In this document: positions 2,927-52,421 of the stretch, piece after piece
Layout: every line of letters begins with the position of its first letter
Numbering within the stretch: the first letter of the stretch is position 1
Assembly: GCA_041649675.1 (NCBI GenBank)
Contig: JBAZMQ010000006.1
Location: 7,003-71,002 of the forward strand
Length of the DNA stretch: 64,000 bases
Reading direction: 5' to 3'
Source: Patescibacteria group bacterium
GTDB taxonomy: Bacteria > Patescibacteriota > Patescibacteriia > Buchananbacterales > UBA6539
The notes under the pieces: model-generated
The model's database searches: none
What the model was told of the DNA's origin: nothing
The model's input: only the letters and a program-made list of their open reading frames with translations
Position numbers and translations under genes: made by a program

Positions 2927-3065
2927 AGGGGTTTGGCCCGTTAATTAGTGAAAACATTAATTTAAAATTATCCTTGTTGATTACCAATGGTTCTAAAAAA
3001 TGACTAGCTGTAAATTATTAAGCGATGGGGTTTACATCATCACTCACAAGTATTAAAATAAGTAT

Positions 3066-4037
3066 ATGTCTAAAGAAATAATTTTGTCGGGCATTAGACC
3101 GACAGGAAAATTGCATATTGGAAACTATTTAGGTTCCCTGGCCAACTTCGTGGAATTGCAAAATCAATACGAAGGCTATTTTTTTATTGCTGATTTACAT
3201 TCCCTAAATGAGCCGTTTGATCCCAAAACCAAATACCAACAAATAATTAATTTGGCCAAAGATTATATTGCCGCCGGTCTTGATCCAAAAAAATGTACGA
3301 TTTTTGTTCAATCTCACATTCCCCAACATGCCGAATTAGCAATAATTTTAGCCAACACCATCCCGGTTTCTTTCTTGTACCGAATGACTCAATTTAAAGA
3401 AAAATCAAATGACCGAGCCAAGGAAAATGTTAATGCCGGTTTATTATATTACCCAGTTTTAATGGCCGCCGACATTTTAGCTTATAAATCAACGATTGTA
3501 CCAGTTGGTCTAGATCAAACGCAACACGTTGAATTAGCCAGAGATGCTGCCGGATTTTTCAATAATAAATTTGGCAAGATTTTTCCCGAACCTAAACCGC
3601 TTTATACCAAGATTCCAAAAGTCATGAGCTTATTAGCACCAGACAAAAAAATGTCCAAAAGTTTGGGCGATAGTCATTGCATTTATATTGATGATGAGCC
3701 CGAAATAATTAAACAAAAATTAGCCAAAGCGGTAACGGATACTGGCGATGGTAAAAGTTTGGGTGCTAAAAATCTTTTAGACTTGGTAAAAATATTTTCC
3801 GATCAAAAAGTTTATTCCAAGCTAGCCGAGGACAGCAAAAATGGCAGTTTAAAATACTCAGAACTCAAACAACAACTAGCTGCTGATATTGCAAATTATT
3901 TTTCCGACTTTAGAAAAAAGAAAAAACAAATCACTGATGAGCAGATAGAAAAAATTCTGACTGGCGGAAACAAAAAGGCCCAAGCCATAGCCCAAAAAAC
4001 TCTGGACGAGGTCAGAAAAAAGATTGGAATTCGATGA
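3066..4037 (+). CDS. trpS: tryptophanyl-tRNA synthetase
   Basis: HIGN (HIGH-class) motif near the N-terminus. KMSKS present. The size and overall pattern fit TrpRS. Confidence 0.9.
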   Translation: MSKEIILSGIRPTGKLHIGNYLGSLANFVELQNQYEGYFFIADLHSLNEPFDPKTKYQQIINLAKDYIAAGLDPKKCTIFVQSHIPQHAELAIILANTIPVSFLYRMTQFKEKSNDRAKENVNAGLLYYPVLMAADILAYKSTIVPVGLDQTQHVELARDAAGFFNNKFGKIFPEPKPLYTKIPKVMSLLAPDKKMSKSLGDSHCIYIDDEPEIIKQKLAKAVTDTGDGKSLGAKNLLDLVKIFSDQKVYSKLAEDSKNGSLKYSELKQQLAADIANYFSDFRKKKKQITDEQIEKILTGGNKKAQAIAQKTLDEVRKKIGIR

Positions 4038-4594
4038 CCACTTTAATAATTGTTTTGTACTCTTTATTAATTATAGTCGCTACCTTTTCTTTACTGCTTT
4101 CACTGCTAATTGGTACTTCCGCTATTGCTGTGTTCATTGTTAAAGTCCCATTTGTTCCTACACCGCAAAAAAATGTAAAAATAGTAATTGATCAATTAGA
4201 TTTAAAACCGGGCCAAATTTTTTATGACTTAGGTTGTGGGGATGCCCGTTTTTTGATTGAAGCGGCTAAGCGCGGGGCGATGGCAACCGGTTTTGAAATC
4301 GCGCCTTGGGCGATTTGGCGGGCAAAACTAAATATCTTTTTTCAAAAAAGCCAAGCTAAAGTTTTATATAAAAATTTTTATAATGTTAATCTAACCGATG
4401 CTGATGCAGTATTTTGCTTTTTAATTGACGTGGTGATGCCAAAAGTTGAAAAGAAATTGCAACAAGAGCTAAAACCAGGAGCGCTAATTGCCTGCTATGG
4501 ATTCAAACTACCAAACTGGCCCCCGGAAAAAATAGTTGATCTTAAACCCTTTGATAAAAGAGCAAGTAAAATATATATTTATAAAAAACATTAA
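4034..4594 (+). CDS. class I SAM-dependent methyltransferase with N-terminal TM helix
   Basis: DLGCGDARF motif I. Overlaps the trpS stop by 4 nt (ATGA). Confidence 0.6.
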   Translation: MTTLIIVLYSLLIIVATFSLLLSLLIGTSAIAVFIVKVPFVPTPQKNVKIVIDQLDLKPGQIFYDLGCGDARFLIEAAKRGAMATGFEIAPWAIWRAKLNIFFQKSQAKVLYKNFYNVNLTDADAVFCFLIDVVMPKVEKKLQQELKPGALIACYGFKLPNWPPEKIVDLKPFDKRASKIYIYKKH

Positions 4595-14468: not shown

Positions 14469-14578
14469 CTGTCATTCTGAGGGAGTGCCGACATATAGTC
14501 GGCCCGACCGAAGAATCTCATACTATTTTTATAGGGATAAGATTCTTCACCCCGACTAAGTCGGGGTTCAGAATGACA
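14469..14578 (+). repeat. MITE-like structured repeat, copy 1 (TIR TGTCATTCTGAG / CTCAGAATGACA, inner IR CGAAGAATC / GATTCTTC)
   Basis: Nested inverted repeats read directly from the sequence. An ATG of the Elp3 gene lies 12 nt downstream. Confidence 0.8.
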
Positions 14579-14589
14579 ACTGACAAATT

Positions 14590-16182
14590 ATGAATAAAAA
14601 ATTAGTTACAATAACAAAATCTTTAGCCAAAGCCAAGTTTAAATCTCGGCTGGATTTAGTTAAACTGAAAAAAAAATTATCCAACCAGCTAAAAATGAAC
14701 GCCCCGCTTAACTCTGACTTGTTACGAATTTATAAAAATTTATTGGCTAAAAAAATTATTTTACCAAATAAAACCTTAGAACAACTTTTATGCAAACGCG
14801 AAATTCGAACTCTTTCGGGTGTGGCGGTAATTACGGTTTTAACTAAACCCTATCCTTGTCCGGGCCAATGTATTTATTGTCCCAGCGAAAAAGACATGCC
14901 TAAAAGTTATTTAAAAAACGAGCCAGCGGCCGCCCGAGCGTTTGCTACCAAATTTGATCCGTTTGTCCAAACTAAAGTTAGGCTCGACGCTTTAAAAATT
15001 AACGGCCACTCAACCGATAAAATTGAACTGATAGTTTTAGGTGGCAGCTTTAGTGCTTACCCAAAAAATTATCAGGCTTGGTTTATCAAACGCTGCTTTG
15101 AGGCTTTAAACAAAAAACCGGCCAAGAATCTTGCAACTGCCCAAAAGCAAAATGAAACTGCTTTGCATCGCTGCGTTGGTTTAACTTTGGAAACCAGACC
15201 GGACATGATTACGCCTAAAGAAATTGAAAGAATGAGGAATTTGGGCTGTACTCGCGTTGAACTGGGCGTGCAAACAATTTACGACCCTATCTTAAAACTA
15301 AACAAAAGAGGCCAGACTGTCAAACAAACAATTGAGGCAACAAAAATGCTTAAAGCTGCCGGCTTTAAAGTAATGTACCATCTAATGCCTAATTTGCCCG
15401 GCTCAAACTTAAAGTTAGATCTGAAAATGTTTAAAGAAATATTTTCTGGACCAAATTTTCAGCCGGACTTACTAAAAATTTATCCTTGCGTGGTGACAAA
15501 AAATTCAGTTTTATATCACTGGTACCGGCAAAAAAAATTTAAGTCTTATTCAGACAAAGAATTAAAGAATTTATTAATTAAAGTTAAACGATTAATTCCC
15601 CAGTATGTCCGCATCACCCGTTTAATCCGCGATATCCCGGCCGAGAGTATAATTGCTGGCAATAAAATCACAAACTTAAGACAACTAATTGCCCAGGATT
15701 TCAAAGGTTGCAAATGTATCCGATGCCGCGAAGCCGGACATAGCTTAGGAATTAAGAATTATGAAGCAGGAATAAGGAAAAAAAGTTCCTCCATAATTCA
15801 TAATTCCTGCTTCATAATTCAAAAATATAAGGCTAGCGGAGGAACAGAATATTTTCTAAGCTATGACTCAAAGGACAAAAAAATTCTTTATGCTTTTTTG
15901 CGACTAAGAATTAACGGCGATATTAATAATAATTTTATACCCGAACTAAAAGGAGCGGCACTTATTCGCGAACTGCATACTTACGGGCAGATGGCGCAAT
16001 TAGGTCAAATTGGTAAAGTTCAACATCTGGGTTTAGGTAAAATGCTTTTGGCCCAGGCCGAAACCATTGCCAAAAAACAAAAAATAAAAAAAATCGCTGT
16101 AATCTCTGGCATTGGTGTCAGACAATATTATAAAAAATTCGGCTACCATTTAGCCGGTACGTACATGCTAAAAAATTTATAA
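14590..16182 (+). CDS. elp3: Elp3-like radical SAM / GNAT acetyltransferase (tRNA U34 carboxymethyluridine synthase homolog)
   Basis: 530 aa. N-terminal radical-SAM Cys cluster (PCPGQCIYCP). C-terminal GNAT-like region. The overall Elp3 architecture. Confidence 0.75.
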   Translation: MNKKLVTITKSLAKAKFKSRLDLVKLKKKLSNQLKMNAPLNSDLLRIYKNLLAKKIILPNKTLEQLLCKREIRTLSGVAVITVLTKPYPCPGQCIYCPSEKDMPKSYLKNEPAAARAFATKFDPFVQTKVRLDALKINGHSTDKIELIVLGGSFSAYPKNYQAWFIKRCFEALNKKPAKNLATAQKQNETALHRCVGLTLETRPDMITPKEIERMRNLGCTRVELGVQTIYDPILKLNKRGQTVKQTIEATKMLKAAGFKVMYHLMPNLPGSNLKLDLKMFKEIFSGPNFQPDLLKIYPCVVTKNSVLYHWYRQKKFKSYSDKELKNLLIKVKRLIPQYVRITRLIRDIPAESIIAGNKITNLRQLIAQDFKGCKCIRCREAGHSLGIKNYEAGIRKKSSSIIHNSCFIIQKYKASGGTEYFLSYDSKDKKILYAFLRLRINGDINNNFIPELKGAALIRELHTYGQMAQLGQIGKVQHLGLGKMLLAQAETIAKKQKIKKIAVISGIGVRQYYKKFGYHLAGTYMLKNL

Positions 16183-16961: not shown

Positions 16962-17076
16962 ATTTCCCAGCTAACTCCATAATATACATACAATCTATCC
17001 AATTGTCAATCCCTAAAACAAGAGCTATAATATATATGCCAATAACAAAAATATTATAAATTAATTATATTAAATT

Positions 17077-17231
17077 GTTATTCTGAGGCCGACTACTCTC
17101 ATTGTTAAGTGAGGCCGAAGAATCTCCTTAACTTAGTGGATCCTTTGGCCCCAAACCTAATTAAGCGGCGACCTCAGGATGACCAGAAGGAGATTCTTTA
17201 CTCTCAAGAATAGCTTGGAGCTCAGAATGAC
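17077..17231 (+). repeat. MITE-like structured repeat, copy 2 (composite; roughly the reverse complement of copy 3)
   Basis: GTTATTCTGAGG ... GAGCTCAGAATGAC, with internal CGAAGAATCTCC / GGAGATTCTT and TCATCCTGAGG sub-repeats. An ATG lies 9 nt downstream. Confidence 0.75.
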
Positions 17232-17240
17232 GGAAAAGAT

Positions 17241-17648
17241 ATGACCCAAAACATTAATTTTCATTTTAATAATGTCGTCATCGTCTGCGGCCCAGTGATT
17301 ATTAAAGATAATAAAGTTTTACTAAATAAACACGGCGAAAGTAACTTATGGAAATTTCCCGGCGGCGATATTACCCAAGCCTCTGACGATTTAGAAACTT
17401 GGGCTCAAAAAAAAGTTAAAGAGGAAATGGATTTGGCAGTTGAAATTATTAAGGCACTAAAACCCATGGTAATTTGGAAAAACGATGAAGTAATTTTGCT
17501 GTTTCATTATTTAGCCGAGTTAAAAAGTGAAACCATAAAACCAGCCGCTTATATTCGCGAATACGGCTGGCATGATATTAATAATTTACCGAGTGATTGT
17601 TCGCCAAACATTAAACCAATAATTGAGGAAGTAATCAACAGTAAATAA
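17241..17648 (+). CDS. NUDIX-like hydrolase
   Basis: Nudix-box-like GG-x5-E-x7-K-x-V-x-EE-x2-L segment. Weak. Confidence 0.45.
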   Translation: MTQNINFHFNNVVIVCGPVIIKDNKVLLNKHGESNLWKFPGGDITQASDDLETWAQKKVKEEMDLAVEIIKALKPMVIWKNDEVILLFHYLAELKSETIKPAAYIREYGWHDINNLPSDCSPNIKPIIEEVINSK

Positions 17649-19590: not shown

Positions 19591-19722
19591 CTGTCATTCT
19601 GAGCTCTAAGCTATTATTGAGCGCGAAGAATCTCTTTCTGGTCATCCTGAGGTCACCACTTAATTAGGTTTAGGACCGAAAGATCCACTAAGCCAAGGGA
19701 TTCTTCGGCCTCAGAATGACAA
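19591..19722 (+). repeat. MITE-like structured repeat, copy 3
   Basis: CTGTCATTCTGAGC ... CCTCAGAATGACAA with inner CGAAGAATCTC / GGATTCTTCGG. The folD ATG lies 12 nt downstream. Confidence 0.8.
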
Positions 19723-23749: not shown

Positions 23750-23759
23750 AATGTTTTAA

Positions 23760-23950
23760 ATTAGAAAATCTAAGCACTAAATCCTAAACAAATCATAAAT
23801 CATAAATTTTAAATTCCAAACGTTTACTATTTATAATTTAAAAATTCGGATTTGTTTAGGATTTAGATATTCGGATTTAGAATTTAGTGCTTATTCTCTC
23901 CCTGCCTCCCTGTTCTCTGTTTTCTGTTCTCTGTTCTCTGTTTTCTGTAA
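23760..23950. repeat. complex AT-rich inverted repeat plus (TGTTCTC/TGTTTTC)n tandem heptamer tract
   Basis: CTAAGCACTAAATCCTAAACAAATC versus GATTTGTTTAGGATTTAG / GGATTTAGAATTTAGTGCTTA. About 5 tandem heptamers at 23915-23950. Confidence 0.7.
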
Positions 23951-24035
23951 ACTCCTATACTTTCATTGTAGTGCCACTGGCAAAAAAGGTCAAAAAAAAG
24001 AGACCAGTCAAATGCTTATAGCACTTAGCTGGTCA

Positions 24036-25133
24036 TTAGTTTACGGAAATGAACATATCCTCGCGCTGGAATTGCACCAAAGGCTTGCCCAGCATCTGGC
24101 CGCAGATCTTCAGGTAGATATTGGTAGTCTCCTCAACCGTCTCTTCGGGCCATTCCAGTTCCGAGACCCAATTGACGTGGGCTTCGTTCTCCGGATCGAG
24201 GTTGTCTATACCGATAATCTGCTCACCCTTGTGTTCACCCTTTTCGTAGAAAAACGGCGTAGGAACCTTGGCGCCGATAGCGCGGACATATTCTTTATCC
24301 GACGTTTCCAGGTTCGTACCGGCTGCCATTGCGGCATTATATTTCTCTTCCTCAATGAACCGCGATGAATCAGGGGTAAGAATCTCATCTGCCGCCACCA
24401 GCTCATTGTTGGCATTCAAACCAAACTCAAACTTGGTGTCAAAAAGGATGATTTTCTTAGATTTGGCATAGTCTGATCCCCGATCATACAACTTGAGCGA
24501 GAGATCCACTGCTTCCTGCGCCAACTGTTTTGGATCGCGGTTAATGCCATTTTCCCGCAGCCAGGCACCAAGAATCACCAGCATTTCGCCAAAAGTCAGA
24601 TGTTTATCGTGGCCGTCCTCGGATTTAGTCGTGGGGGTAGCAATTGCCGTAGATAATTTGCAACCCTTAGTGAGACCTTCAGGCAATAAAATGCCACAGA
24701 CTTCACGGGTCGCTTGGTAGCTTTTCCAACCGCTGCCACCCAAATAGCCGCGAACGACAAACTCGATGGGCAACATCCTGAGATTAAGAACAATCATGCC
24801 CCGCGATTGCAGGTCGGCGTTCCCACGCAATTCTTCGGGTAGATACTTGTCAATGGCCGCGCCATACGCCACGAGGTGGTTGGGGATATCCGCGAAGACA
24901 TTCAATAGCCAGTCGATGGTCATGGCGGTTAGGACCGAGCCCTTGAGCGAAATCAGCAGATTGAGGATGAAATCAAAAATGCTGATTCGGTCCGTGGCGA
25001 CGATAAGCCGCAAGTCGGGAAAACTAGGCAAGGCGTAGGAGTTGCGCACCTTGCCGACAGTCAATTCGTTGAGCTTTGTTGCCAGCAAGATGAATAGCGG
25101 CAACGCAAGCAGTCTGGGGTTAATCTTTTTCAT
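24036..25133 (-). CDS. purC: SAICAR synthetase (long form)
   Basis: FVVRGYLGGSGW and DTKFEFG motifs. GC-rich. Confidence 0.8.
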   Translation of the reverse strand: MKKINPRLLALPLFILLATKLNELTVGKVRNSYALPSFPDLRLIVATDRISIFDFILNLLISLKGSVLTAMTIDWLLNVFADIPNHLVAYGAAIDKYLPEELRGNADLQSRGMIVLNLRMLPIEFVVRGYLGGSGWKSYQATREVCGILLPEGLTKGCKLSTAIATPTTKSEDGHDKHLTFGEMLVILGAWLRENGINRDPKQLAQEAVDLSLKLYDRGSDYAKSKKIILFDTKFEFGLNANNELVAADEILTPDSSRFIEEEKYNAAMAAGTNLETSDKEYVRAIGAKVPTPFFYEKGEHKGEQIIGIDNLDPENEAHVNWVSELEWPEETVEETTNIYLKICGQMLGKPLVQFQREDMFISVN

Positions 25134-25175
25134 GGTTTCTTCTTTTCCTTCCTGTCTGTTGTAACTTGTTGTTTT

Positions 25176-25898
25176 CTATCCGAGAGCCGCAATGGCTTGG
25201 GTCCACGTTTGAAACGACGCTTCTTTGCCTTTGGCGTCGGCAATCCGTTGCCGTAAATCGTCAGGGATTTGGCCGTTAACCGCGAATTCGCAAGCGCGAG
25301 TAAAACCGTCGGGGCCAAAGTACTGTCCGGCTTCATCACCGCTAATAAGCAGATCCGCGCCGGGAAATTGCGTCATGGCCAGTAAGGCAGCCACATTTTT
25401 TCGCTGCTCATCATTCATTGCCGCCACAATCTCCTGGGGCGTCCGAGCGCTGTTGAGAACAACGTTGACTTCCGAGTCGGTTGTCGGCTCTTTTGGTTTC
25501 TCACACTTCAGAGCCACACCAATAACAATGATGTTTTTGGCGTGGAGTCCGTGGTACAAATAGCCTGCGGCTAAGCCGGGCAAAACTGCCAGCCAGCCAG
25601 CGGCCATGACCAAGACGTAATCGGTATCGAGATGGCTTTGCGCAATATTCGCCAGCCTGGTCAAAAACTCAAACAGGATGGCGAAGTTCCGATGGGCACT
25701 GATCGTGAAGTGCCCTGTGCCTCTGTGCTTGGGCTCAAGTACCAGCCGAACCGCCGGGTCCAGATCAATAATTTTCCCTGACTCGATCGCAGCCAAAGCT
25801 GCCGCCAGCGTTTTCCAACCGCCGCCTAACTGTTTGGCGTCGTTTGGCGAGCCAGCAATGGTTATAACTACCCTTTTTCTTGTTTCTTCAGTTGCCAC
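25176..25898 (-). CDS. purE: AIR carboxylase family (PurE-like) with C-terminal extension
   Basis: VVITIAGSPND (GSxSD-like) and AAGWLAVLPGLAAG...IIVIGVA (PurE core). GTG start. Confidence 0.65.
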   Translation of the reverse strand: MATEETRKRVVITIAGSPNDAKQLGGGWKTLAAALAAIESGKIIDLDPAVRLVLEPKHRGTGHFTISAHRNFAILFEFLTRLANIAQSHLDTDYVLVMAAGWLAVLPGLAAGYLYHGLHAKNIIVIGVALKCEKPKEPTTDSEVNVVLNSARTPQEIVAAMNDEQRKNVAALLAMTQFPGADLLISGDEAGQYFGPDGFTRACEFAVNGQIPDDLRQRIADAKGKEASFQTWTQAIAALG

Positions 25899-26126
25899 TG
25901 ATACTGTCCAACCTTTCTGGTTTTGTCCTTACGGACGCTTCGTTTTCTTTTCCATACCTCCCTTGTTTTGGGCGGTATCTTGCTTTGTCAATAAAATATA
26001 TTGTCAAAAAACAAAGTCTTTCCTCCTTGATCCGCCAAAGCCCGAGGGCAGAGGCAAACTCCTTGAAAAGACTAGTTTTGTACTCACAAATTAACAAAAA
26101 AATAATTAAATGTCAATGATCACCAA

Positions 26127-26214
26127 TTGTCATTCTGAAGAAGCGAAGCGGCTGAAAAATCCCAAAAGTTTAAGATTCTTCGCGCTAAAATATCGCTTAG
26201 AGCTCAGAATGACA
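26127..26214 (+). repeat. MITE-like structured repeat, copy 4
   Basis: TTGTCATTCTGAAG ... GAGCTCAGAATGACAG. An ATG lies 10 nt downstream (27-codon ORF). Confidence 0.75.
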
Positions 26215-26331
26215 GTAGGAGATATGCGCCTATTCGTTAATGTTATTTGGATAAAAAAAAGAAGCCAGTCAAACCCTCATGGATCTGACCGGCCGTTGAT
26301 TACTTAAACTTCCCTCCACCTCTTTCTTCGC

Positions 26332-28206
26332 CTAGTGCTTGGCAAAAAGCCGATCGGCGCTACTCAGGAAGGCGACAGAAAGCCCGGACTTGCTAAACAA
26401 AGCCTTGACGTTCTCGATCTCCTTGCCGTCAGCCGGCACCACGCCACCGATACAACCGGCGTCAATGAGCAATTCGGTTCCCTCTCGTCTATCCGATTGG
26501 GAAATCAGTGTGGCCATTTCGCCCAACAGCCTGATCGTCTCCAGTTGATTGCCAACCCGGTCAGCACTTCTCGCCTGAGCCAACAGCCACTCAATCTGGG
26601 CTAAGTCTACCGGCGGCTGTTCTCCGGTGGCATACGGGAAGAATGCATCCGAGGCAAAAACCGAACCTTGGGTGGTATGCCCAGCCCGTCTGGCCCGCTC
26701 AATGCAGAGCCTGACACAGGCAATCCGGTCTTGCTGGCCGCAGCCGAGACCAATTAACATCCGGTTCTTGGCCAAAGCCACGGTATTGCTGGAAGACCGA
26801 TAACAGGCCACCCAGGCAATCAGCAGATCTTCAAACCGGTCGTCGCTCAAAGGCACCCCGACCCAGGATTCAATCGTTTCCCTGGTCAGGATAAAACTTG
26901 GCGCCTTCTGTTTAAGGACATCACCGTTGCCAAGAAACTGCCACATCCATTCATTGGTTGGCATTTGCGGATCCAGTAATGCCAAATTGCTTAACAACCG
27001 GCGTTTCTCCCGCTTCCCTAGCTGCTCAACCGCGCCCGGGGAAAATGACGGAGCATAGATAATGTCCAGACCCCAGTTCTTCCGGCCAATCAACAGACTG
27101 AGTGGCGGGGACATCAATTCAACTCCAAGTTCATCGGTGATAGCGAAATTGGTAACTACTTCACCGCCCATTACCGCTACCTTGTCACCCGTCAAAGCTT
27201 TACGCAAAGCCGTTATGGGACTGGCCCAATCAACACCAATGCCGCAAACATTGCCGTGCTTTCCGGCAACAACAATGTACGGCACTTTACCGTAGACTCT
27301 TCGGTAAGCCTCGGCCAGAAAACGCAAAGCCCCGATCAGGCCGGCACCGTCTGCGATGCTGATGTAGCTAGGGTCGCCGGAAACGACTTGAAACTTGCTA
27401 GTTGCCAGCGGATCGTCGCTGTCGGTGGTAAACAGAAAAGCCGGGTCTTGGCGGTGATTTTCAGCATAGGCCAACTTTCGCGCCAACCGCATGAAGATGC
27501 CATCGAAATGACCGCCGCTGTGAAAACGGGCGGATTCCATCCGGTACCGAGACACGACGAAGTCAGCCTTGGCACAAAGGGCATTGCGGGTCTCTTCGGT
27601 AATCTCACCGTTATGCTCGCGCATCTGGTCAATCACCATCTGCCGGTCAGCCGGATCGCAAATCACAATTCGGCGACCCTTGGCTCCTTCGGAAACCATG
27701 GTCGGCCCGCCAATGTCAGTACCTTCGACAACCGACTCGGTTGTCGCGCCTTCCGCCTCGATTGCTCTCATTAGGGCATAGAAGTCGCAAACCACCATGT
27801 CGATGAAGGGGATACCAAACTTCGCCAGTTCCTTAAGATCAGAATCAATAGCCCGTGCGAGGAGTCCGGCTGATTTCGGCCGCGAAAGACTCACTACGCG
27901 ATGACCGAGCATCGGATTAGCATCAAGCAACTTTGCGACAGCTTTGGCTGAGAGCTTCCGACCACCCCTTTTGGTCTTAAAAGAAATACCGGCGCTAACA
28001 AATTCCTGAACCATGCTGCGCGTAATCATGTCAGCGATGTCTTGAACTTTGATACCGGCCGCCGCCAGATATTTGCACGTACCGGCCGAGCCAATAATGT
28101 GCCAGTTGCCCAATGCCTGCAACTGCCGAACAAAATCGACAATGTTAGGATTTTCCTTTTCAGTGACACTAATTAGCGCCACCCTCTGTCTCTGTTTTTC
28201 GGACAT
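26332..28206 (-). CDS. purH: bifunctional AICAR transformylase / IMP cyclohydrolase
   Basis: MGS domain ALISVTEK, DIGGPTMV, GCGQQDR and ASDAFFPYA motifs. GC-rich. Confidence 0.85.
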   Translation of the reverse strand: MSEKQRQRVALISVTEKENPNIVDFVRQLQALGNWHIIGSAGTCKYLAAAGIKVQDIADMITRSMVQEFVSAGISFKTKRGGRKLSAKAVAKLLDANPMLGHRVVSLSRPKSAGLLARAIDSDLKELAKFGIPFIDMVVCDFYALMRAIEAEGATTESVVEGTDIGGPTMVSEGAKGRRIVICDPADRQMVIDQMREHNGEITEETRNALCAKADFVVSRYRMESARFHSGGHFDGIFMRLARKLAYAENHRQDPAFLFTTDSDDPLATSKFQVVSGDPSYISIADGAGLIGALRFLAEAYRRVYGKVPYIVVAGKHGNVCGIGVDWASPITALRKALTGDKVAVMGGEVVTNFAITDELGVELMSPPLSLLIGRKNWGLDIIYAPSFSPGAVEQLGKREKRRLLSNLALLDPQMPTNEWMWQFLGNGDVLKQKAPSFILTRETIESWVGVPLSDDRFEDLLIAWVACYRSSSNTVALAKNRMLIGLGCGQQDRIACVRLCIERARRAGHTTQGSVFASDAFFPYATGEQPPVDLAQIEWLLAQARSADRVGNQLETIRLLGEMATLISQSDRREGTELLIDAGCIGGVVPADGKEIENVKALFSKSGLSVAFLSSADRLFAKH

Positions 28207-28234
28207 TGTTGTATCTTCCTCTCATTCTGTTTGA

Positions 28235-29821
28235 CTAAGCCGCGATAGGCTTGAGTCCGTTGGTTGTTTCCCGTCTTGCATCTTTAATCGCATCACCCAT
28301 GTAATGCGTTGGGTGCTTCAATAAATGAAGTTCCCGGCGCGTTAGGCCCTTCCAGGCGCGACGGAATTTCTGGTCGGTTTCATTAGCCTGCAGGTAAAGC
28401 TCAGCCGCGACACAAAGGTTTGGCGCTCCGGCCTTAACCCGGGCAATCAACTCCTTTTTGACAAAAGTATGAGCGCCGGCAAATCCCTCGCGCTGTAATG
28501 CATTATGAAGCAATTCCGCCAAAGACGCTGGCCCAAATGTCTGAACCCAGTGCAGACAGCGCTCTTCGTTGAAGGCTAGGACGCTCATCTGCCGCTTTAC
28601 GCTGTAAAGCTCCTGAGCAAAGTACTCCAAGGCTTCAATGAATGTCCTCATAACCGATGACCAACGCAAATCGCGTTGGAAATTGCTGCCGCGCGTCAAC
28701 CAAGGTCTTAAGGCGCAACTCAGTACGATTGTGTCTGCACCAATGGCATTTTCGGCCCGGATTGGATTAGCTTCTTTAGCCGCTCCGGCCGAAGAGGTGG
28801 AAGTGACATCCACCTCCTTTGAAGGAACAACCTCACCGAGTTCGGGCATATGCAAGATGCGAAGGTCTTCGCACAGACTCATCATCGGTCCGCCGATGGC
28901 AACAAGGTCACTATAAAAATGAACCGTATGATGAATCGGCGCAATCTGGGTGCTGCCTTTAGCGACTGGTAAGTCCAGAATGCTCATCAGTGTTCGTTCT
29001 GCTTTCTTGGGAATACCCACCGCTCGCTGGGATGCAGCCGTACCAACGAAACCGCAAAATTTGCCCGGCATAGCTAAAGCGGCCCGCTGCAGTTCAAGGG
29101 CACAATCGGTAAATTGCCGATGGGCACAAGCCAGGTAAAATCCGACGGTACCGGGTATGGCTGGCTGCAAGTGAGTGCGAAACATCTGGCGCGTCGTCAA
29201 ATATTCGTTGATCTTTGCCCGCCAGGTTTCATCAAGCGCCATCATCTTTGGCCACAGAACCAGACTGAACACGACTCGAAGCTGCAGGGCATATGCCGTT
29301 GAAATCGTATCATAGGAAGTTGCCGTATAGTGCAGCCACTTCCAAAGTCCTTTGGGCAAATACCGGCGCATCAAAGCCAACAACGCCAAGATGTCGTGAC
29401 CCATTCCCTTGGTCCCTTTCTTCTTGTCGCCGTATTCCAGCCGGTCTTGTTTGGTTGTAGTAACGTGCTTGAGCACATACAATAAACGTTCGGTGGTCAG
29501 AAGCCTGGCGTCTTTTTCGGGCATGACTCCGATGATGGCCAACGCCACCATCCAGAACCATTCCACGATGACCAACCAGGCCGCCCACTGGTCGTAACCA
29601 AGATACGGAACCAATTCAGGCTGCTGCTCTTCGTAGCGGTGATCCATATGCATCACTAAAACTCGCCGCGGATCCTCAGCCAGAACCGCCAGATAAGCAA
29701 TTGCGGCTGCCAACATCTCTCTTGCCTGTTTAATCGTCATACGCTTTGAACCTTTCTCCAATTTTTTTTCTATCAGCCATAGCCAAATGACCAATTCATC
29801 TAAACCTATATTTATTGTCAA
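28235..29821 (-). CDS. purB: fumarate-lyase superfamily, adenylosuccinate lyase-like
   Basis: SSAGAAKEANPIRAE resembles the GSSxMPxKxNP signature. About 100 aa N-terminal extension. GC-rich. Confidence 0.55.
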   Translation of the reverse strand: MTINIGLDELVIWLWLIEKKLEKGSKRMTIKQAREMLAAAIAYLAVLAEDPRRVLVMHMDHRYEEQQPELVPYLGYDQWAAWLVIVEWFWMVALAIIGVMPEKDARLLTTERLLYVLKHVTTTKQDRLEYGDKKKGTKGMGHDILALLALMRRYLPKGLWKWLHYTATSYDTISTAYALQLRVVFSLVLWPKMMALDETWRAKINEYLTTRQMFRTHLQPAIPGTVGFYLACAHRQFTDCALELQRAALAMPGKFCGFVGTAASQRAVGIPKKAERTLMSILDLPVAKGSTQIAPIHHTVHFYSDLVAIGGPMMSLCEDLRILHMPELGEVVPSKEVDVTSTSSAGAAKEANPIRAENAIGADTIVLSCALRPWLTRGSNFQRDLRWSSVMRTFIEALEYFAQELYSVKRQMSVLAFNEERCLHWVQTFGPASLAELLHNALQREGFAGAHTFVKKELIARVKAGAPNLCVAAELYLQANETDQKFRRAWKGLTRRELHLLKHPTHYMGDAIKDARRETTNGLKPIAA

Positions 29822-29904
29822 AAAACAAAGTCTTTCCCTCCCTGGAAAGACTGTTTTGTATTATTAATCTAACAAAATTGCCACTAAATGTCAAAATAAC
29901 CAAT

Positions 29905-30022
29905 TGTCATTCTGAGGGATCCACCCCCTGTCTACCAACAGACAGGCGGGGGTGGAGACCGAAGAATCTCAAACGTTTGGGATTCTTCGCACCCAGATAT
30001 TGCTTGGAGCTCAGAATGACAG
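29905..30022 (+). repeat. MITE-like structured repeat, copy 5
   Basis: TTGTCATTCTGAGG ... GAGCTCAGAATGACAG with inner palindrome CCACCCCCTGTC / GACAGGCGGGGGTGG and CGAAGAATC / GATTCTTCG. An ATG lies 10 nt downstream (15-codon ORF). Confidence 0.8.
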
Positions 30023-30106
30023 TACGAGATATGTACATATTCGTAATGCCATTCGCCTACAAAAAAAGACCAGCCTGAATATCTTTCAAGCTGGGATAAA
30101 AATCCA

Positions 30107-30742
30107 TTAAAGAGGCAGGTACATTTCCTCCAAATGCTGCCAAATAGTTTCTGGCGAGGAATCGACGTTAACGGTGACTTTAACAATAGTTACACTTCTT
30201 TCCCGATAAAAGTTGCTTAGTTTCAGGATTTCTTGGCTAAAAATAGCCAGCCTTTTTTTGACTTCATCCTCTGAGTCATCCTTTCGACCTTTACGATCAC
30301 CACTGGCATTAGTTCTTATTCGCTCAAGAGCAACTGAGTCAGTGCACTGCAAGCAAATAATAAATTTGACATCAACAATTTCTTGCAATTGGGTAGCCTG
30401 GTATAAATTCCGGGGTAAACCATTAAGCACTAAAAGACGATTTGGCCCAACTTTTTGCTCAAGGATAAACCGATCAAGAATTCTTGCAGCAATTAGGAAC
30501 TGGCCATTGGCCAAAAGGGTGCCATCTTTTAATACCTTTCGGATTGCCTGGATTTCAATTGGTTTCAGGTAACTTACTTGATTTTTGGGATCTGCTAGCC
30601 AACGCAAATGTTTGCCAAAGTCAAAATGAGAACACAAACGCTGTTTCAGTTTGTGCGACTCCAGCCAATCACAAAGTGGCGACTTGCCTGAGCCAGTTGG
30701 CCCGACTACCACTATTGCCGGATATTTGTAATGGGTTAACAT
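30107..30742 (-). CDS. adenylate-kinase-family nucleoside monophosphate kinase
   Basis: P-loop GPTGSGKS, NGLPRNLYQA (GFPR-like) and an R-x-DD lid. Start taken at the internal ATG with RBS AAGGAGAG. Confidence 0.6.
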   Translation of the reverse strand: MLTHYKYPAIVVVGPTGSGKSPLCDWLESHKLKQRLCSHFDFGKHLRWLADPKNQVSYLKPIEIQAIRKVLKDGTLLANGQFLIAARILDRFILEQKVGPNRLLVLNGLPRNLYQATQLQEIVDVKFIICLQCTDSVALERIRTNASGDRKGRKDDSEDEVKKRLAIFSQEILKLSNFYRERSVTIVKVTVNVDSSPETIWQHLEEMYLPL

Positions 30743-35597: not shown

Positions 35598-35846
35598 ATT
35601 TTTACCCTGCAAAACGTGGTAAATTTAACAATTTAACCTTTTCCCGCCCTGCAATAAACTAGGGCATTAACCTTATCATTTAATATGATAAGGAAAGGTG
35701 TTTTTTCCTGGCTAATAGAAGCCTGGTTGACGTAGCGCGCAAAACATCTTTGGGCGTTTTTAATTTAAAGTTAAGAATCAGAAGTAATGAATTGTGGAAA
35801 TGAATGGCAGTCACGATTCCTAATTTCTAATTCCTAATTTCTAGCT

Positions 35847-50196: not shown

Positions 50197-51516
50197 TTAT
50201 TTTTTTAGATTCTTTAATTCTTCTCTAACCACCTGCCGGTCATCCCAAGGAATTAATTTACCATCTTTGACCGCCATAACCGGTTCGCAACCTTTGCCGG
50301 AAACCAAAACCAAATCGCCCGCTTGAGCCAAGCTCAAAGCTTTACTTATTCCTTGGCGCCGGTCCAAAATACTAAATAAATTTTTATTATTAACTTTTCC
50401 GGCTTTTATTGCGCCGGCGGCTACCTGATCAATAATTCGCTGCGGATCTTCATCGTAAGGATCTTCATTGGTAACAATTACATAATCGGCTAATTTAGCA
50501 GCAAGCTCACCTAAAACCGGCCGCCGCCAGCAATCCCGGCCGCCGCCGCAAGAACCTAAAACATGAATAACTTTTTTATGATCAATTAATTTTACCATTT
50601 CATATAAAGCTAAAACAGCTTTGGGCTCGTAAGCATAATCAACAATGATTTTAAACGGCTGACCAGCTTCAATAAATTCAATTCGGCCTGGCACGCCTTG
50701 AATAGCTGATAAAATTTCAGACATTTTAGACAAACTCAAGCCTTGGGATAAACCAAGAGTAACAGTTGCCAGGGTATTATAAATATTATGACGGCCAAAA
50801 AGTTTTAGATTAAACGGCTGACCAGCAACTGTAAATTCAACACCCGATCCGGAGATTACTTCGTTTTCGGCTCGCACTACCCGGCCTTGATCGCTGGACT
50901 GTTGGGTCAGAGTAAAACCAAATTTGTCTTGGGCCCAATTAGCCAAAAAATCTTTAGCGTGTTCATCATCCAAATTAGCAATAATGGTTTTTTTAATTTT
51001 TTGGTTTGCCAAAATTTTTATCGTCTCTTCTTTGAGTTTAGCAAAAAGTTTTAGTTTCGCTTTTTTGTAATTTTCAAAATTGCCATGAGCTTCAATATGC
51101 TCAGGGTATAAATTAGTAAAAATTAAAATATCATAATTAATCCCTAAATGCCGGAATTGCTCAATCCCCTGAGAACTGGTTTCAATAATTGCATACTGAC
51201 AATTTGCTTTAGTCATCTGTTTAATCAACTTCTGCAAAGCAAAGCGACCAATCATAGTCATCTTTTTGTCGTTTAACCATTCTTTTTTATCAACTTTAAA
51301 GAGAAAAGTTGAGGCCGCGCCAACCCTAAAACCGGCATTTTGTAGCATTTTGGCAATTAAATAAACTACCGTTGATTTACCCGAAGTGCCGGTAACCCCA
51401 ATGACAATTAACTTGTCCGATGGACTGCCGTAAAAAAAATTAGCCGCTATGGCGAGGGAATAGTGGTAGAGTTTTAATAATGGTTGAGGAATAAATTGTT
51501 TTAAGCGGTTTAACAT
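50197..51516 (-). CDS. Mur ligase family protein (MurE-like)
   Basis: GVTGTSGKST P-loop. Mur ligase middle and C-terminal domains. Confidence 0.7.
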   Translation of the reverse strand: MLNRLKQFIPQPLLKLYHYSLAIAANFFYGSPSDKLIVIGVTGTSGKSTVVYLIAKMLQNAGFRVGAASTFLFKVDKKEWLNDKKMTMIGRFALQKLIKQMTKANCQYAIIETSSQGIEQFRHLGINYDILIFTNLYPEHIEAHGNFENYKKAKLKLFAKLKEETIKILANQKIKKTIIANLDDEHAKDFLANWAQDKFGFTLTQQSSDQGRVVRAENEVISGSGVEFTVAGQPFNLKLFGRHNIYNTLATVTLGLSQGLSLSKMSEILSAIQGVPGRIEFIEAGQPFKIIVDYAYEPKAVLALYEMVKLIDHKKVIHVLGSCGGGRDCWRRPVLGELAAKLADYVIVTNEDPYDEDPQRIIDQVAAGAIKAGKVNNKNLFSILDRRQGISKALSLAQAGDLVLVSGKGCEPVMAVKDGKLIPWDDRQVVREELKNLKK

Positions 51517-51590
51517 TGATGAATTATGAATTATGAATTATGAATCGGGAGAGTTGCCATAATTCCTGATTCATAATTCCTAATTCTAGA
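51517..51590. repeat. AT-rich inverted repeat (GAATTAT x3.5 ... ATTCATAATTCCTAATTC)
   Basis: Left arm GAATTATGAATTATGAATTATGAATC is complementary to right arm GATTCATAATTCCTAATTC. Confidence 0.65.
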
Positions 51591-52193
51591 TTATTTTTTG
51601 CCTAAAATCTTCAATGCTTCGCGAATACACGTACTAGCATCATTACTCTTTTTATCAATCTGACTAATTACTTGCTTGGCTTCGGCAGCTGAATAACCAA
51701 AGCCCACCAAGGCATCAAAGATATCAGTATCCAAACTGACCTCATTTTTCTCACCAGCAATTTTTGGCCGCACAGTTAAACTTTGAACTTTATCTTTTAA
51801 ACCAAGAACTATTTTTTCCGCTGTCTTGGAAGTTAAGCCTGACATTTTAGTTAAGAGAGTCGGATTATTTTCCAAAATCGCTTGCTGAACTTCAGCCATA
51901 GTGGTTTTTTCCAAAATCGCCATGGCCGATTTGGGGCCGATTTGGGGCACGTCCAAAAGCAACGTAAAAAAAGTTTTGTCCGCTGGATTTAAAAAACCAT
52001 ATAAATCCATGGCATTTTCCGAAACGGCCAAATAAGTATAAACCGTTATTTTTTCGCCTTCTTTTACTTTTTTCAAATTACTGGCGGGGCTATAAACTTT
52101 GTAGCCCACGCCAGAAACATCAACAATAAAATAAGCGTCTTTGCGCAGCTCGGAAGTCTTGTAGCTAATTGTACCAGCAAGAGAGGCAATCAT
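51591..52193 (-). CDS. ruvA: Holliday junction branch-migration protein RuvA
   Basis: N-terminal OB. Two HhH domains. A C-terminal RuvB-binding domain. Confidence 0.85.
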   Translation of the reverse strand: MIASLAGTISYKTSELRKDAYFIVDVSGVGYKVYSPASNLKKVKEGEKITVYTYLAVSENAMDLYGFLNPADKTFFTLLLDVPQIGPKSAMAILEKTTMAEVQQAILENNPTLLTKMSGLTSKTAEKIVLGLKDKVQSLTVRPKIAGEKNEVSLDTDIFDALVGFGYSAAEAKQVISQIDKKSNDASTCIREALKILGKK

Positions 52194-52207
52194 TGAACAG
52201 AATAATG

Positions 52208-52290
52208 AATAGTGAATTAAGAATTATGAATTACGAATGATTTAGAGACCTTAATTCCTAATTCTTAATTCCTAATTCTTAATTACATTT
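52208..52290. repeat. AT-rich inverted repeat, second locus (GAATTAAGAATTATGAATTACGAAT ... TTAATTCCTAATTCTTAATTCCTAATTCTTAATTAC)
   Basis: Same word family as 51517-51590. Confidence 0.6.
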
Positions 52291-52421
52291 TACCGCAAAA
52301 ATCTAACTTTTACCAATATTTTTAAATTGACAAAAACTCCTTATTTAGCTAAGATTTTAAAGATCTGAAAAATCGTGCAACCTACAACTAAAACAAAGTT
52401 ATCACATTGGAGGAAGAGTCT

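Follow-up and report, generated by a model that had tools for sequence, protein, structure and literature searches.

Two paralogous promoter-leader cassettes at purine operons of a Patescibacteria group bacterium: candidate promoter-proximal attenuators, with miniature inverted-repeat elements as likely passengers

Two purine operons on contig JBAZMQ010000006.1 of a Patescibacteria group bacterium (GenBank assembly GCA_041649675.1) are each preceded by a block of about 300 bp, block A (25985-26290) and block B (29800-30090). Positions are those of the window, by which we mean the whole 64-kb stretch analysed; its sequence is also deposited as a metagenome contig (ENA ERZ27247363, k141_2826939). 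We suggest that the blocks carry two old paralogous copies of a promoter-proximal attenuator, that is, a conditional terminator answering to a trans-acting effector, and that these copies have been partly homogenised within each genome, with miniature inverted-repeat transposable elements (MITEs) as passengers. We regard this reading as probable. The anatomy of the copies, their conservation, their confinement to purine (pur) operons and the fact that relatives lack this MITE are all seen directly. What is new is a clade-wide, purine-specific promoter-leader motif, present in at least ten Patescibacteria genomes and belonging to no Rfam family.

The two blocks are paralogous. When 25960-26310 is aligned with 29770-30110 (MAFFT), mean column identity is 77%. 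An exact 24-mer, ATTGTCAAAAAACAAAGTCTTTCC, occurs twice in the 64 kb (26000 and 29814) and is expected zero times in shuffled sequence, even with 3 mismatches, and the segment CAGAATGACAGTAnGAGATATGnnCnTATTCGT that flanks the MITE is confined to the same two sites of the window. A sequence-only reading of this DNA had pointed to two blocks of about 300 bp sharing several segments, each with two minus-strand TTGACA motifs and each 5' of minus-strand purine genes, and the alignment and the unique 24-mer bear this out; block A has a third TTGACA at 25993..25988. Read on the minus strand, which is the sense of the pur genes, each block runs from the terminator of the upstream gene through a shared segment of ~30 nt, the MITE, ATTGGT, a sigma-70 promoter, a 9-bp hairpin, UUGUUUUUU and a GACAAT box to the pur genes. 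The parts of the two cassettes on which the argument rests are as follows (ORF, open reading frame).

29866..29894, minus strand: promoter B, with -35 TTGACA (29894..29889), a 17-nt spacer and the extended -10 TGtTAGATT ending at 29866; 10/12 matches, with the TG.
29820..29852, minus strand: leader hairpin B, AGUCUUUCC-AGGGAG-GGAAAGACU (29852..29829) plus the U-tract UUGUUUUUU (29828..29820); predicted free energy -11.8 kcal/mol; a match in the terminator scan.
29796..29828, minus strand: box and candidate micro-ORF B, where UUGACAAU is the second TTGACA (29821..29814) and UUG UUU UUU GAC AAU... would read MFFDNKYRFR*.
26088..26116, minus strand: promoter A, with -35 TTGACA (26116..26111), a 17-nt spacer and TGtTAATTT (-10 at 26093..26088).
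26006..26073, minus strand: leader hairpin A, AGUCUUUUC...GGAAAGACU (26073..26015) plus the U-tract (26014..26006); predicted free energy -24 to -28 kcal/mol.
25988..26014, minus strand: box and candidate micro-ORF A, with UUGACAAU at 26007..26000, the reading MFFDNIFY* and the third TTGACA at 25993..25988.

In the mechanism that we propose, the cassette would be native to the Patescibacteria (Parcubacteria-type) clade and would open with a strong sigma-70 promoter of the extended -10 kind. Some 10-25 nt past it comes a short leader, whose sole structure, the hairpin with its U-tract, would act as an intrinsic terminator in front of the pur genes. Transcripts would stop there unless some condition permits read-through. 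The two cassettes of this genome, one for each operon (purB-like/purH-like and purE-like/purC), would let both operons answer to one leader design.

The promoter is well marked. Both blocks contain the sigma-70 extended -10 pattern TTGAC-N14-16-TGnTAnnnT. Twelve related loci (given L numbers here) were compared with the window. TTGAC, TG and TA...T are invariant in an alignment of ten leaders, the window copies included, and TTGAC-17 nt-TGnTAnnnT does not vary among 13 aligned instances drawn from 7 genomes. The window holds nine strict extended -10 promoters, only two of which, both at pur operons, have a terminator-like hairpin within 80 nt. With a promoter thus conserved, the earlier proposal that the block drives expression of the genes behind it is upheld, and the block promoter very probably does so. 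The second TTGACA was tried as a second promoter and rejected: none of about ten leaders has a -10-like hexamer at a spacing of 16-18 nt beyond it, and in L003_1 a start there would fall inside the Shine-Dalgarno (SD) sequence.

The hairpin, of 9 bp, lies 13-14 nt past the -10 and reads AGUCUUU(U)C(C)...GGAAAGACU, followed by UUGUUUUUU; in block B it was scored as a terminator (with TTGTTTTTT). The last two U residues of the U-tract make up, with the GACAAT box, the second TTGACA, and the remainder of the leader up to the start codon measures 73 nt in B and 101 nt in A. A stem-loop and U-tract on the sense strand between promoter and gene, the layout of an intrinsic terminator, was found in 18 leaders from 12 loci (10 genomes and two short contigs). 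Hairpin energies are mostly -9 to -15 kcal/mol, with the degenerate copy L007_2 as an outlier at -3.7, and are similar to the weaker of the nearby true gene-end terminators (-13.6 to -22.5 kcal/mol). In the core clade 97.4% of stem cells hold standard pairs. Stem variation is mostly U-A to U-G on the 3' strand, and changes on both sides are seen at two pairs, in one sequence (L027_1). Two points favour an RNA hairpin over a DNA operator: G-U wobbles preserve pairing in the sense-strand RNA alone, and the loop accommodates inserts of 30-50 nt.

The loop of hairpin A holds one such insert, of ~30 nt, between direct repeats of TCAAGGAG (8 nt). By eye it is related to the GTCCGCC..TCGGGC..GGCGAGAC mini-repeats of L003, L005 and L006. 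A mini-repeat of ~32 nt (GTCCGCC..GYCCYTCGGRC..GGCGAGAC) stands in tandem after purH in L003 (10250-10330) and L005 (6260-6360) and also inside the leader-hairpin loop of L006 (1-20), and block A has a diverged copy (26024-26066, minus strand).

We also considered whether the hairpin is the terminator of the upstream gene, and rejected this: each intergenic region has a separate terminator, and no gene of the same orientation precedes L005_1 or L007_1. The neighbour on that side is ychF, transcribed divergently, so in L005 and L007 the hairpin cannot serve upstream-gene termination.

Outside the window the core of the cassette recurs at pur operons. Homologues of the lyase encoded behind block B come from Patescibacteria and Parcubacteria wherever the source names the organism. 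In L003, whose lyase is 86% identical, the promoter, hairpin, U-tract and (G/C)ACAA box stand upstream of the lyase gene and again downstream of purH; neither a TCATTCTGAG-type MITE end nor the 24-mer occurs at this locus. L004 and L005 have two copies each of the promoter-leader core, L006 a partial copy at the contig end, and L007 two copies. Two copies with long loop inserts are present in the Buchananbacteria-type L027 (lyase 42% identical), and L029, where the pur genes are contiguous, has one. The MITE-free relatives L003, L004, L005, L027 and L029 thus keep the core at equivalent positions, 5' of the purB-like/purH-like genes and 5' of the next operon. A covariance model built from ten leaders recovered 13 instances, all at pur operons (E 1e-6 to 1e-14); in the rest of the 146 kb its best scores were at least 20 bits lower and matched the promoter part only. 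A metagenome-wide pattern scan, anchored on the stem sequence and hence able to find close relatives only, gave 16 matches, of which 13 were due to chance, two were duplicates (L003, L005) and one was new (L007), the true matches all belonging to the same clade. Farther away, in L024, L028 (twice), L023 and L030, a hairpin and U-tract follow a region that is promoter-like by eye, with unrelated stems such as GCCGGA/UCUGGC and CCAAACC/GGUUUGG; the leaders of L026 and L031 have no hairpin with U-tract. The case for the hairpin would thus rest on conservation and wobble changes in the core clade, and on structure kept without sequence in the distant relatives.

The relation between the two copies is a mosaic. 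Block A shares TAATTTGTGAG with L007_2, and block B shares the segment after the -10 with L007_1, which suggests that the two copies are old paralogues. At the same time A and B have in common the MITE and both MITE flanks, and their 3' stem, U-tract and box are identical. No MITE is present in L007_2; the one in L007_1 (TGTCATCCCGAA...), beside ATTGGT at the equivalent spot, is a different element. This A-B likeness beyond the core appears best explained by exchange between the copies, through gene conversion or concerted evolution. The paralogue pairs within L003, L004, L027 and L028 each share genome-specific traits, which is the pattern expected from concerted evolution.

Several points weigh against the attenuator reading and have to be set beside this evidence. 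Termination at the hairpin, its conditionality, the transcription start, the signal and read-through are predicted from the DNA. Covariation statistics for the stem are weak, since its sequence is itself conserved: 51 of 500 shuffles reach the observed score. A conserved G breaks the U-tract, a departure from the ideal terminator, and the loop motif AAGGAGG and the box UUGACAAU are not accounted for by a plain terminator. No conserved antiterminator pairing was found in the leaders, an upstream GGGAAA able to pair with the 5' strand of the hairpin being limited to L003_1 and L005_1; a switch of this kind would thus probably not be made of RNA only. Gene conversion is inferred from mosaic similarity alone, and independent MITE insertions at homologous sites are a possible alternative, because the arm of copy A is 91% alike to that of the copy at 19591 and only ~82% to the arm of copy B.

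The loop motif and the box hint at a part for the ribosome. By eye, about 13 of 16 leaders have an unpaired GGAGG-type motif, placed either in the loop or immediately 5' of the stem, and (U/A)UG UUU UUU GAC AAU lies at or near the stem base, with UUG or AUG 0-3 nt past the stem in most leaders. In a ribosome- or leader-peptide-dependent attenuator, 30S binding at this SD loop or 5' flank and the UUG/AUG, or translation of MFFDN..., would compete with the hairpin and so determine read-through or translation of the genes behind it; this would link the pur operons to translational capacity or to initiation (the supply of GTP or formyl-Met). The sense-strand micro-ORF can be read as MFFDN in six leaders (in L004_1 as exactly AUG UUU UUU GAC AAU UAA), as MFFDI in two, as MFFEN in L029 and as MFLEN in L028_b (AUG UUC CUU GAA AAU). 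The peptide start is therefore kept across nucleotide contexts, with several third-position or conservative changes, and a place within a start codon would account for the conserved G in the U-tract. In L003_1 (MFF*), L004_2 (where UUC UUU GAC AAU is kept but a start codon is missing), L007_2 and L030, however, the ORF is interrupted or missing, and its length varies between 3 aa and over 40 aa. A connection of Phe, Asp or Asn codons with purines is not obvious, and a nucleotide motif UUGAMAAU explains the data about equally well. Moreover, the start codon would still be inside RNA polymerase, out of reach of a ribosome, when the terminator acts. We therefore consider this alternative unlikely. 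Attenuation of the trp type is not indicated, as MFFDN follows no purine logic and the leaders yielded no alternative hairpins. A narrower form, in which the ribosome itself is the effector of a minimal attenuator and 30S binding or initiation at the SD loop and UUG opposes termination, is a speculative suggestion that we rate as rather doubtful. If true, it would couple purine and one-carbon genes to initiation capacity (the supply of GTP or formyl-Met-tRNA) in place of a riboswitch or a PurR-type repressor.

The conserved sequence could also act as DNA. The inverted repeat AGTCTTTCC / GGAAAGACT, together with the TTGACAA boxes, of which one lies at the -35 and one after the T-run, would then bind a repressor that blocks or loops both pur promoters. 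Such an operator would fit a stem sequence that is conserved rather than covarying in the core clade, boxes at fixed places, and an element restricted to two co-functional operons. The palindrome TTGTCAATTGACA occurs in L003 and L005, perfect over the -35 in L005_1 and at the adk promoter of L003. The half-sites, mostly 5-7 nt apart, are nevertheless 36-50 nt apart in W_A (block A), L027_1 and L027_2, which fits an RNA hairpin and not a dimeric operator. The asymmetric changes (A to G, on one strand) preserve RNA pairing and not DNA symmetry, distant relatives keep hairpin and U-tract with other sequences, and no regulator gene is linked to the element. We regard an operator as improbable.

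Could the promoter, hairpin and U-tract instead form a gene for a small RNA of ~40-70 nt with an SD-like loop, pur expression being mere read-through? A strong promoter followed by a terminator would give a defined short transcript, and the conserved unpaired AAGGAGG could act in trans. The element, however, is always in the sense orientation and immediately 5' of pur operons for which no other promoter can be recognised, it tolerates loop insertions of 30-50 nt, and no free-standing copy was found. We give this idea very little credence.

In addition to the conserved core, each block contains a MITE and, beyond it, a distal shared segment and the terminator of the upstream gene.

29904..30019, no strand assigned: MITE copy B, with ends TTGTCATTCTGAGG / GAGCTCAGAATGACAG, inner repeat CGAAGAATC / GATTCTTCG and an extra GC-rich hairpin; z -6 and -8.
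26127..26215, no strand assigned: MITE copy A, of the same family as copy B; right arm 91% to the 19591 copy and ~82% to copy B.
30020..30058, minus strand: distal shared segment B, sense GGCGAATGGCATTACGAATATGTACATATCTCGTAC, with GCGAAT/ACGAAT units; its plus strand holds the micro-ORF MYIFV...
26216..26250, minus strand: distal shared segment A, sense ...CATTAACGAATAGGCGCATATCTCCTAC, with ACGAAT/GCGAAT-type units; its plus strand holds the micro-ORF MRLFV...
30060..30094, minus strand: predicted intrinsic terminator of the adk-like gene (block B), a 10-bp stem (30094-30070) then TCTTTTTTT, -13.6 kcal/mol; its antisense is the AAAAAAAGACCAG of the sequence-only reading.
26253..26294, minus strand: predicted intrinsic terminator of the purH-like gene (block A), a 14-bp stem (26294-26263) then TCTTTTTTTT, -22.5 kcal/mol.

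That each block contains a MITE, as first read, is correct, and the element belongs to a family of five copies in the window (14469-14579, 17075-17233, 19591-19722, 26127-26215 and 29904-30019), 89-159 bp long. The inverted ends TCATTCTGAG occur 14 times in the window against 3.1 expected. The five copies have the ends TTGTCATTCTGAGG / (G)AGCTCAGAATGACAG (also listed as TTGTCATTCTGAGG / CTCAGAATGACAG), an inner inverted repeat CGAAGAATC / GATTCTTCG and variable hairpins between, and they fold well beyond shuffled sequences (z -4.9 to -8.2). Terminal inverted repeats, small size without an ORF, and multiple dispersed copies are the structural marks of a MITE; there are no common duplicated bases at the flanks of the five copies that would mark a target-site duplication. 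No transposase domain was found in ORFs near the blocks, the search being confined to the window. Other contigs of this organism are 99.96% (a 21.9-kb stretch) and 100% (a 5.6-kb contig) identical to the window and are therefore uninformative on strain polymorphism of the MITE.

The MITE copies of the TGTCATTCTGAG family at 14469-14579, 17075-17233 and 19591-19722 each end 10-15 nt before a gene start. Those at 17075 and 19591 are composite, with a TCATCCTGAGG-type element nested in the central loop and 109-nt arms that are 86% complementary. Three MITE copies end in GAGCTCAGAATGAC(A/G)G with AGATATG 3-4 nt further on (17230-17243, 26216-26227 and 30020-30031), and the ATG of the AGATATG at 17241 is the start codon of a real NUDIX gene.

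In the sequence-only reading the whole block of ~300 bp, MITE included, was a reusable module, a mobile promoter or integration unit, by which the GC-rich pur genes were brought in or are expressed. Its promoter and MITE parts stand; the mobile cargo module and a plus-strand micro-ORF are not supported. The two copies are indeed alike across the MITE and both flanks, the pur genes are GC-rich relative to the window, and MITEs of the same superfamily adjoin pur promoters in L007_1 and L028 too. Against this, a search for further copies found no third block within the window and no unrelated cargo, and the two that exist are both at pur operons. No similar sequence was found in plasmid or phage collections, and there are no recombinase or attachment-type repeats nearby. 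Relatives have the core at the same, orthologous pur sites without this MITE; the synteny recurs in closer relatives, and raised pur GC is common to most relatives compared. Conversely, the MITE copies at 14469, 17075 and 19591 carry none of the promoter or leader segments. In each block the MITE lies just upstream of the -35, which is outside it, and the MITE is therefore not the supplier of the promoter. A mobile promoter that delivers its cargo is thus largely refuted, the whole model being very improbable, and the MITE appears to be a passenger. The gap between terminator and promoter seems to be a tolerated landing place for MITEs, as elements of the same superfamily (TGTCATTGCGAG) also lie between terminator and pur promoter in L028.

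The plus-strand micro-ORF of the earlier reading finds no support. It is 27 aa long in A and 15 aa in B and has no counterpart in relatives. As a candidate gene it was rejected, being antisense to all its surroundings and made of a repeat remnant and an antisense terminator tail (the A-run). The shared AAAAAAAGA(A/C)CAG, proposed as part of the block, is indeed shared, but as the antisense image of the upstream gene's terminator U-tract and stem and not as a block-specific motif. A 65-aa ENA gene call (26110-26307) runs through the MITE and is probably spurious. The plus-strand ORFs start with MRLFV (A, 26225-26239) and MYIFV (B, 30032-30046). MRLFV is the E. coli 23S 'E-peptide' pentapeptide, and M-bulky-L/I-hydrophobic-V the consensus of erythromycin-resistance peptides; the likeness is probably a coincidence, because the ORFs run to 27 and 15 aa and are antisense.

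The GCGAAT/ACGAAT units of distal segment B resemble heptamer arrays at the equivalent place in L003 and L005, and the ACGAAT units of both distal segments look like the remnant of an array of this 7-nt type. Arrays with a 7-nt period occur in the window at 15741-15835, 51515-51607, 52199-52299, 35816-35839 and 23757-23960, and in relatives at L005 6440-6555 and 2510-2560, L003 10440-10500 and L007 4770-4810. Their units include GAATTAT/GAATTAA, ACAGAGA x5, CTAAATC, TACGAAT, GCGAAT and TAGGCAC. They are intergenic, mostly between terminator and promoter or in the 5' untranslated region, and often form long imperfect palindromes.

The genes around the blocks are the following (ASL, adenylosuccinate lyase; all on the minus strand).

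30742..30107, minus strand: adenylate-kinase-like (adk-like) gene, directly upstream of block B.
26332..29740, minus strand: operon 1, ASL-like lyase (29740..28235) and PurH-like AICARFT/IMPCH (28206..26332); 53% GC.
24036..25898, minus strand: operon 2, a 240-aa, weakly AIRC/PurE-like protein (25898..25176) and PurC (25133..24036); 51% GC.

The labels purE-purC and purB-purH given to these pairs at first are roughly right, but the proteins are divergent and the PurE and lyase matches are weak. Adenylosuccinate lyase is the best match of the lyase, yet far under the equivalog cut-off (117 against 326 bits), and the similarity of the 240-aa protein to AIR carboxylase (PurE) is sub-threshold, with an equally weak match in three homologues. 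The pur genes have 51-53% GC against 40% for the rest of the window, and in most relatives compared their GC is raised as well (50-57% against 42-45%), L024 showing almost no excess. The gene order ychF, (adk), purB-like, purH-like, ..., purC, LigD_N, folD, SHMT recurs in closer relatives. Given this shared order and raised GC, the pur genes appear to be old residents.

In L007 the place taken in the window (28235-29740) and most relatives by the ASL-like lyase (117 bits) is occupied, at 3010-4455, by a canonical PurB (TIGR00928, 325 bits); the flanking leader, purH-like and purE-like genes of L007 are homologous to those of the window. This points to a non-orthologous replacement of the lyase, and since the canonical PurB stands behind the same leader, the leader belongs to the locus and not to one cargo gene.

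Two further observations concern the neighbourhood. A short ORF, MEKKTKRP*, with a strong ribosome-binding site (AAGGGAGGTATG) lies at 25933-25959 (minus strand), just 5' of the purE-like gene, and is not conserved in L004 and L007. Between ychF and the adk/purB promoter, L003 (5915-6140) and L005 (2600-2828) have a conserved GC-rich intergenic region of ~230 nt that is not in the window. Closed by a 13-bp stem (GGGUUGGGCGCACC...GGUGCGCCCAGC), the region shows 6 pairs in which both partners differ between L003 and L005; it matches no Rfam family and is a candidate structured RNA.

Purine synthesis is usually said to be missing from Patescibacteria, members of the candidate phyla radiation (CPR). 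Part of the set is retained in this clade, namely the ASL-like lyase and PurH-like, PurE-like and PurC proteins. To our knowledge, gene regulation in these bacteria is almost unstudied, and a limited literature search on this promoter-leader motif, on MITEs in Patescibacteria and on CPR purine genes found nothing usable.

Among known systems, the MITEs can be compared with the promoter-adjacent repeats of other bacteria, such as the Correia elements of Neisseria and ERIC/REP/BOX-type repeats. Like these they are small, have terminal inverted repeats and nested palindromes, and lie in many intergenic copies, including between terminator and promoter. Unlike in Correia-type MITEs, the -35 and -10 here are outside the element and are kept in MITE-free relatives, and no target-site duplication or parent transposon was seen in the window. 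The two regulatory copies per genome would, in addition, be an example of concerted evolution.

The leader itself shares gene kinds (purH, purC, purE, purB, with folD and glyA nearby) and a leader-terminator readout with the purine, ZTP/pfl and PRPP riboswitches. In contrast to purine riboswitches it has no aptamer, and only 6-21 nt separate the inferred transcription start from the terminator stem. The window contains no tRNA genes. Neither there nor in five related loci does any Rfam 15 family reach its gathering score, and a search of the blocks at E up to 10 gives only noise (snoRNA, miRNA, E >1). The E. coli ampC attenuator and the short leader ORFs of the cat/erm type are known comparators of another kind: here too a candidate ribosome-binding site and a minimal ORF would lie within a leader hairpin, whose formation a bound ribosome could counteract. 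Unlike in those leaders, the micro-ORF is not universally intact, and there is no context of antibiotic resistance or growth rate.

The nearest parallels to the proposed attenuators are the promoter-proximal attenuators of nucleotide operons, namely B. subtilis pyr/PyrR, E. coli pyrBI and B. subtilis pyrG. The leader loop UCCAGGGAGG resembles the PyrR loop, UCCAGAGAGG, though the Rfam PyrR-site model gives no match in the blocks even at E up to 10. A tblastn search of the 64-kb window and the loci, with an approximate PyrR sequence as probe, found no PyrR/phosphoribosyltransferase gene. The cassettes differ from pyr/PyrR in having no conserved antiterminator or anti-antiterminator and in preceding purine, not pyrimidine, genes. 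As in pyr-type attenuators, a promoter is followed by a short leader with a predicted intrinsic terminator and then by nucleotide-biosynthesis genes, and one design serves several operons. The leader is thus a small, testable candidate for the control of nucleotide genes in a bacterium with a minimal genome.

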